Positions 58,852 to 59,262 of a stretch of 64,000 nucleotides of DNA are shown here, piece by piece; the stretch's first letter is position 1, and each line of letters begins with the position of its first letter. This stretch comes from an uncultured Thermodesulfobacteriota bacterium (GTDB lineage Bacteria > Desulfobacterota > BSN033 > WVXP01). A program made the position numbers and the translations under genes. Location: NCBI GenBank assembly GCA_964348095.1, contig CAYGBK010000085.1:920-64919 (forward strand), given 5' to 3'. The notes below the pieces were generated by a model. It saw only the letters and a list, made by a program, of their open reading frames with translations. It searched no databases and was not told the origin of the DNA.

Positions 58852-59262
58852 ATGAAAGGTAGAAGTCTGAGAATATTAGCAGCGGGCCTTGTGCTCGCCA
58901 TCATAGGTATGTCAATTGTAACAGCCATGGCTACGGAAGCCTCGAGGATGTCCAAGGAGGATCTCAAGGCGATGCTTGGAGATCCTGACCTGGTCATCGT
59001 GGATGTTCACCTCGGCCGTGACTGGGAGGAGAGCACCAGAAAAATCGAAGGGGCGATCCGGGAAAACCCGAAAGAAATCGAATCTTGGGCCGATAAGTAT
59101 TCCCAAGACAAGACAATCGTGCTCTATTGAGCTTGAGCCAATGAGGCGACCAGTGCCAGTTTGGCGCTGAAATTCATGGACAATGGATATACCAAGGTTT
59201 ACGCCCTCAAAGGGGGGTGGAACGAATGGGTAGAGGCCGGATACCCCACGGAACCCAAATGA
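58852..59262 (+). CDS. Periplasmic single-domain rhodanese whose frame continues through two in-frame TGA codons (59128 and 59134) at the catalytic-Cys position. This is either a candidate selenoprotein or a pseudogene.
   Basis: Signal peptide, then the rhodanese fold (DLVIVDVHLGRDWEESTRKIEGAI...KDKTIVLY). TGA falls where the CxxGxR cysteine is expected. Downstream, in the same frame, the domain continues (ALKFMDNGYTKVYALKGGWNEWVEAGYP). A hairpin starts 20 nt after the UGA. Confidence 0.5.

Follow-up and report, generated by a model that had tools for sequence, protein, structure and literature searches.

The gene at positions 58852..59262 on the plus strand of the window, which is the whole 64-kb stretch of DNA that was analysed, most probably encodes an exported, single-domain selenoprotein with a rhodanese fold, belonging to the Cys-x-Sec (C-x-U) family NF041203 and present in a form with two selenocysteine (Sec) residues, U-x-U. 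Judged from sequence comparisons, this reading has a probability of roughly 0.85. The original prediction of a Sec-containing rhodanese was supported by a match of 180 bits to NF041203, by the conservation of TGA in relatives, by covariation in the downstream hairpin and by purifying selection on the codons that follow.

Reading Frame and Family Membership

Frame 1 from the ATG at 58852 reads ...DKTIVLY-TGA(59128-30)-GCT-TGA(59134-36)-ANEATSASLALKFMDNGYTKVYALKGGWNEWVEAGYPTEPK-TGA stop, and its translation gives 136 residues including two Sec, with the stop codon TGA at 59260-62. The first in-frame UGA (59128..59130, plus strand, residue 93) would be a Sec codon at the position where most family members have Cys, and the second (59134..59136, plus strand, residue 95) is the family-defining Sec codon of the motif L-Y-C-A-U. 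The original prediction had described a rhodanese gene with an in-frame TGA at 59128-30; these coordinates were confirmed, and with Cys placed at the TGAs the rhodanese domain (58954..59235, plus strand, residues 35-128) matched Pfam PF00581 (Rhodanese) with E=2e-15. Neither a frameshift nor any other defect was found in the gene.

A putative ribosome-binding site, AAAGGGG (58837..58843, plus strand), was read from the sequence 8 nt 5' of the ATG and lies beside the TGA (58845-47) that ends the CoxG-like gene upstream. A basic n-region, a hydrophobic core and an A-M-A motif, recognised by inspection, point to a probable signal peptide, MKGRSLRILAAGLVLAIIGMSIVTAMA (58852..58932, plus strand), so that the mature protein probably begins with TEASR. 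With this signal-like leader, the rhodanese selenoprotein is probably exported to the periplasm. An N-terminal hydrophobic leader was present in all homologues and in some included a lipobox (LLQGC or VSGC, for example), and the leader of a homologue was disordered in the AF2 model.

In the public databases the window gene is represented by a 92-aa fragment, P0001, named 'hypothetical protein GTN81_03440' (window 58852-59130). The window's own sequence was present in two assemblies, one of which is the metagenome-assembled genome GCA_011773285.1 (WVXX01000063.1). TGA was the terminator of 23 of the 46 long non-overlapping ORFs in the window, including the rhodanese gene and its upstream neighbour; TGA is therefore an ordinary stop codon in this organism.

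With Cys at both TGAs, the NCBIfam entry NF041203, 'rhodanese_LYCAU, rhodanese-related (seleno)protein', was matched with E=1.3e-53; it is an equivalog model with an NCBI curated cut-off of 115 bits. The alignment was full length, with residues 15-136 lying on profile positions 5-126 of 126. The family name spells the motif L-Y-C-A-U. The TGA at the last position of this motif was present (59134-36), while the Cys at the third position was absent, with TGA (59128-30) standing in place of TGY; this TGA marks a variant inside the family and not an exclusion from it. After the TGAs the C-terminal half was kept in frame as ANEATSA...KVYALKGGWNEW...YPTEPK, where the family pattern is x-N-E-x-T-S-A ... 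K-V-Y-A-L-K-G-G-W ... Y-P-x-E-x-K. The claim that the frame continues past the TGA with conserved rhodanese C-terminal motifs thus held for the whole conserved half.

Two In-Frame TGA Codons in Relatives

Of 285 relatives found in a genome scan, 80 loci were retained, mainly from Thermodesulfobacteriota and Syntrophobacterales, with some from NC10, Anaerolineales and Dehalococcoidales. TGA occupied the second position in all 80 loci, and the frame ran through the conserved C-terminal half in every one of them. The first position was TGC or TGT in 78 loci and TGA in the other two, namely L005 (TGA ACC TGA) and L039 (TGA AGC TGA). In this alignment with Cys- and Sec-containing homologues, a check proposed with the original prediction, the first TGA therefore falls on the usual Cys. 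True homologues with Cys at both positions were also found, P0008 (TGT GCC TGT) and P0011 (TGC GCC TGC). The second TGA had been regarded as an atypical puzzle; since it is invariant and the first TGA sits at the usual Cys site, the emphasis has to be inverted. The base after the second UGA was C in 122 of 150 sequences.

For the double-TGA DNA pattern, defined as Y-TGA-NNN-TGA plus downstream family positions, shuffled versions of the window gave an expected count of 0, and within the genome-locus set the pattern matched only the window, L005 and L039. The same pattern was found in at least 119 metagenome contigs. Among the loci listed, UAU (60), UTU (22), UDU (8), USU (5) and UNU (3) motifs were counted, against 85 C-x-U forms, and all of the U-x-U variants tallied ran on to the conserved C-terminus. 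Two 92-residue database proteins, P0004 and P0005, were 71-73% identical to the window fragment and both had TGA-GCA-TGA, as did the nearest relatives L083 (81% identity) and L202/L203. P0004 occurred in two further assemblies with the same CoxG-rhodanese-TspO gene order as the window. Of the choices offered for the second TGA, a U-x-U motif is the one that stood; sequencing error and decay did not, given the two genomes, the at least 119 metagenome contigs and the varied middle codons.

Homologues annotated with 'C-A-W' or 'C-S-W' were considered as a third motif state and rejected, as their DNA reads TGA and the W is a gene-caller artefact; the public records P0006, P0007 and P0009 show Trp where the DNA has TGA. 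Other public records of the family stop at LYCA. Tandem paralogues were seen in three genomes (L029:3734, L030:3680 and L044:3614), each with an additional C-D-U copy, marked by a 'PDNGTSA' loop, some 430 nt downstream. The metagenome contigs L128, L172 and L192 each bear one C-x-U and one U-x-U copy.

The motif was masked and a neighbour-joining tree was built from 165 distinct domains; in this rough tree, from a sample enriched for U-x-U, the U-x-U and C-x-U forms were interleaved, with about 24 parsimony switches. Pairs consisting of one C-x-U and one U-x-U sequence were up to 86% identical. As read from these sequences, changes between TGY and TGA have been numerous at the first-UGA position. 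Over the 28 codons 3' of the motif, the median dN/dS was 0.16 for 84 distinct U-x-U genes (2325 pairs); because the pattern used to collect the metagenome set itself required some of the downstream motif, the apparent intactness is biased, and dN is biased downwards. For the window gene against its relatives, downstream dN/dS ranged from 0.10 to 0.34, being 0.34 against L083 and about 0.1 against more distant U-x-U genes. These sequence-based ratios indicate that purifying selection acts downstream of the TGAs.

The Probable SECIS Hairpin

A hairpin within the coding sequence (59151..59169, plus strand), spanning the codons for T-S-A-S-L-A-L, was identified as a bacterial SECIS element from its fold energy, covariation and fit to the bSECIS consensus. 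The hairpin, cagugcc/AGUUU/ggcgcug, has a 7-bp stem in which 59151-57 pairs with 59163-69, and a loop, AGUUU, at 59158-62. The distance to its start is 20 nt from the first UGA and 14 nt from the second. The hairpin alone had an energy of -12.5 kcal/mol (z=-4.2 against dinucleotide shuffles), and 1 of 200 shuffles was equally good; in its 76-nt context z was -2.7.

An ungapped alignment of 150 distinct sequences placed the stem in columns 24-30 and 36-42 (59151-57 and 59163-69). The register was identical in all 150 sequences, and the five core pairs were about 99% paired. At pair 27/39, 111 sequences had U-A and 32 had C-G; both columns are third codon positions at which the change is synonymous (Ser AGU/AGC and Ala GCA/GCG). 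Changes on both sides occurred in five of the seven stem pairs, giving 52 such cells against 16.4 in shuffles. Overall, 84% of the cells were paired, against 23-48% with the 3' partner slid. The observed pairing, the covariation score and the double-change count were reached by 0 of 500 shuffles. The loop G (59159, alignment column 32) was invariant in the 150 sequences, and the base after it was G or U. The codon in the loop has the form NGK, and the encoded residue varies among S, R, G and W; that the amino acid varies while the G does not argues for constraint at the RNA level.

The bSECIS consensus has a loop of 3-9 nt, an upper stem of 4-16 bp, an MFE of at most -7.5 kcal/mol, a G in the first two loop positions that is usually followed by G or U, and a distance from UGA to loop of 16-37 nt (PMC13188914 Fig. 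2A). The window hairpin has a stem of 7-8 bp, a loop of 3-5 nt and an energy of -12.5 kcal/mol (family mean -9.7), its loop reads A-G-U-U-U, and its apical loop lies 27 nt from the first UGA and 21 nt from the second, which is within the range for both. The SECIS-like hairpin proposed at 59151-59169, 20 nt after the UGA, was thus borne out by the consensus and by covariation in 150 sequences. Rfam, searched with the whole window at gathering thresholds and with a permissive scan of 59080-59280, returned nothing relevant and no bacterial SECIS match.

When 80 U-x-U rows were compared with 70 C-x-U rows, neither a second SECIS nor a nucleotide signature that set U-x-U apart emerged at p<1e-3; the hairpins of both forms were equal in energy (-9.7 and -9.6 kcal/mol for U-x-U and C-x-U, respectively). 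As the two forms share their columns and hairpin energy, the U-x-U genes appear, at the sequence level, to depend on the one SECIS that the C-x-U form also uses. Among the Cys-Cys homologues, L205 (601-930) keeps a 5-bp hairpin core and L204 (213-620) has lost the stem. The core in L205 may reflect a recent Sec-to-Cys conversion; its presence in a Cys-Cys gene also means that part of the hairpin conservation could be due to codon or amino-acid constraint. These are the only two Cys-Cys cases, one with the core and one without it, and are therefore uninformative on the hairpin.

Active-Site Position and Fold

Sequence alignments with PDB entries conflicted. The catalytic Cys of 1uar, 2hhg and 1qxn fell on the first TGA, with a 2-residue gap later on, whereas that of 6mxv fell on the second TGA position without a gap. 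The AF2 model of the Cys homologue P0008 had a mean pLDDT of 85, with values above 90 in the domain, and showed a strand, TIVLY, followed by a six-residue loop, C-A-C-H-D-E, and then a helix. The model favours the first TGA as the canonical first residue of the active-site loop, and the family Sec as loop residue 3. The original prediction put the TGA exactly at the catalytic Cys, which is reasonable for the first TGA according to the AF2 model, 1uar, 2hhg and 1qxn; the word 'exactly' went too far, as 6mxv places the second TGA there. All top Foldseek hits of the P0008 model were ordinary single-domain rhodaneses, with TM of about 0.68. Anion-binding rhodanese loops differ from the loop [C/U]-A-U-x-N-E, in which Asn-Glu is conserved and Arg is absent.

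Genomic Context

No selA, selB, selD or tRNA-Sec gene was found in the 64-kb window, where the tRNA scan found no tRNA and there was no Rfam hit. Twenty long ORFs of the window, together with the neighbouring genes, were screened as candidates for SelA, SelB or SelD, and all belonged to other families. No other selenoprotein gene was evident in the window; a scan for TGA-interrupted ORFs gave noise, except for two adjacent genes in the same frame.

Clustering of the neighbours at about 199 loci revealed no conserved operon partner, so gene context gives no function; an APC-type permease was found at 23 loci, cytochrome fusions at 12 and DUF547 at 11. In the window, the rhodanese selenoprotein gene lies between a CoxG/SRPBCC-like gene (58392-58847) and a TspO/MBR gene (59287-59796), and this order was kept in L202 and L203. 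The CoxG-rhodanese-TspO order was kept in close relatives (71-81% identity) and not across the family. The CoxG stop at 58845-47 sits 4 nt before the rhodanese ATG. Elsewhere in the window, 56390-57340 encodes a 2-thiouridine desulfurase-like/DUF1722 protein (PF04463, PF08349), 59915-60976 encodes a Nal1-like serine protease (PF25608, PF25819) from a family named for a plant protein, and 26756-28648 on the minus strand encodes a 630-residue protein with an adenylate/guanylate cyclase catalytic domain and C-terminal TPR repeats.

Alternative Explanations

One alternative is that Sec is inserted at the second UGA alone, while the first mostly terminates translation or is passed by near-cognate read-through. 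The gene would then yield mainly a 92-residue product, or Trp/Cys at residue 93, and the double TGA would be a down-tuned or regulatory allele and not a diselenide enzyme. The U-x-U genes are without an extra RNA element, the first UGA is separated from the hairpin by 6 nt more than the family Sec codon is, and work on E. coli stressed a fixed spacer of about 11 nt for SECIS function (PMC8659212), so decoding at the first UGA may be inefficient. However, the 27-nt spacing of the first UGA is within the bSECIS range, and the first position is otherwise Cys, in 78 of 80 loci, as in a classic Cys/Sec pair. Furthermore, U-x-U has had many origins and has been retained in diverged lineages whose downstream domains are intact and under selection, which would be unexpected if translation usually ended at the first UGA. 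We consider termination or read-through at the first UGA improbable, and a protein with Sec at both positions remains the preferred reading.

Even less probable is that the TGA at 59128-30 arose from TGC or TGT in an ordinary C-x-U gene, either as a sequencing or assembly error or in a fresh pseudogene, as the original prediction had also allowed. A single base change converts TGY to TGA, 78 of the 80 related genomes have TGY at this position, and the source is a metagenome-assembled genome. Nevertheless, the identical sequence occurs in two assemblies, TGA-GCA-TGA is also present in L083 and L202/L203, and two other genomes, as well as at least 119 metagenome contigs, carry both TGAs with different middle codons. 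The gene is also free of frameshifts and other defects, and its downstream part is under selection (dN/dS 0.34 against L083 and about 0.1 against distant U-x-U genes). A genome-wide reassignment of TGA from stop to sense (genetic code 4 or 25), in which both TGAs would encode Trp or Gly and selenium would be irrelevant, is scarcely credible. Some public calls do give W at the family TGA (P0006, P0007 and P0009), but this is the gene-caller artefact described above; TGA ends half of the long window ORFs (23 of 46), and the TGA positions align with Cys in P0008 and P0011. Error, a fresh pseudogene and code reassignment were all rejected in view of the recurrence of the double TGA, the selection downstream of it and the ordinary use of TGA as a stop.

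Proposed Mechanism and Function

For the double-Sec protein, SelB carrying Sec-tRNA(Sec) would bind the single hairpin and deliver Sec at the first UGA, and two translocations later a second Sec would be delivered at the second UGA. The mature periplasmic protein would bear the active-site loop U-A-U-A-N-E, in which the two selenols are probably a redox-active or chalcogen-carrying pair. This pair could cycle between diselenide and selenolate, or could hold a persulfide or perselenide intermediate, and the ordinary C-x-U members would use a selenenylsulfide likewise.

At 12 metagenome loci, a U-A-U rhodanese was fused to an octahaem HAO-like cytochrome c (Pfam PF13447; best PDB hit 6h5l, E=4e-32). 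These fusions were found at L100, L103, L114, L120 (635-2248), L161, L165, L166, L167, L184, L185, L190 and L198. The rhodanese is N-terminal to a domain of about 400 residues with eight CxxCH motifs, and the product is predicted to be exported. The octahaem fusion is consistent with a periplasmic redox role of the [C/U]-x-U pair, and the fusions in relatives suggest that electrons could be fed to the [C/U]-x-U site. We give about even odds to the wider proposal, in which one SECIS within the ORF drives two Sec insertions 6 nt apart to make a periplasmic, diselenide-capable Sec-x-Sec protein; such proteins would have taken the place of Cys-x-Sec in many independent events, would be frequent in wetlands and anoxic sediments, and would in some lineages be linked directly to an octahaem cytochrome c of the HAO-like kind. 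Should the diselenide form differ in its chemistry, for example through a lower redox potential or the handling of polysulfide, selenite or tellurite, these proteins would be a natural model of tandem Sec decoding and diselenide catalysis in bacteria.

Significance and Comparison with Known Systems

The practical gain is a corrected annotation of a gene filed as a 92-residue hypothetical protein. The family and its double form have already been described, with U-x-U in print since 2007, and the identification of the window gene is correct and not new. The prevalence of U-x-U appears to be unreported in the literature. In our survey the double-Sec form was widespread, in at least 119 metagenome contigs, and has repeatedly arisen, apparently with the same single SECIS as the one-Sec form. 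As a natural system it would lend itself well to studies of the distance allowed between a bacterial SECIS and its UGA, and of what a Sec-x-Sec pair achieves beyond Cys-x-Sec. The current picture of selenoprotein biology is unchanged, and the mechanistic interest is modest.

A 2026 review lists NF041203 as 'form 3, CxU, 1 Sec' (PMC13188914). The window gene is like the members of this family in its leader, its L-Y-x-A-U-x-N-E-x-T-S-A loop, the Sec position at 59134-36 and a SECIS hairpin in the same register, but differs from the form listed with one Sec in that the motif Cys is itself TGA, which would give two Sec. A U-x-U motif formed by a second Sec in a rhodanese-related sulfurtransferase selenoprotein was reported from deltaproteobacterial symbionts of Olavius algarvensis by Zhang and Gladyshev in 2007 (PMC1976440). 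The motif is the same as in the window gene, and the change from C-x-U to U-x-U suggests the same subfamily. That account, which takes up a sentence and a figure, concerns a single metagenome; prevalence, repeated origin and a shared single SECIS are not described there. No further description of a rhodanese U-x-U motif was found in the literature searched.

Other bacterial double selenoproteins with close Sec pairs have been listed, such as TsoB (PMC13188914), which is rhodanese/DsbD fusion-like (NF045694, UxxxxU). Both TsoB and the window protein are bacterial selenoproteins with a rhodanese domain and two close Sec codons; however, the match to the TsoB model was weak and partial (30.7 bits against a cut-off of 805), and motif spacing and domain architecture differ. 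ExtH, a rhodanese-like lipoprotein of Geobacter whose gene adjoins that of the multihaem selenoprotein MccSep, was weighed as a possible relative and set aside, being 49 kDa in size and of different architecture; it offers a loose analogy only.

The window hairpin resembles the E. coli fdhF-type SECIS and the bSECISearch model in being a stem-loop inside the ORF just 3' of the UGA, with a stem of 5-8 bp and a small apical loop that has G and then G/U at loop positions 2-3. In contrast to the fdhF-type element, one hairpin here apparently serves two UGAs 6 nt apart, and a bulged U is not evident.

Among single-domain rhodaneses, Sud, the periplasmic polysulfide-sulfur transferase of Wolinella succinogenes (1qxn), is likewise exported and consists of a single rhodanese domain, and its catalytic Cys aligns with the first TGA. 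GlpE (1gmx) and other single-domain rhodaneses also have the single rhodanese domain in common with the window protein. Sud and GlpE have Cys only and an anion-binding loop containing Arg/Lys, whereas the loop here is [C/U]-A-U-x-N-E with a conserved Glu, and the distance from the catalytic residue to the next conserved Gly is 2 residues longer here than in Sud and GlpE.
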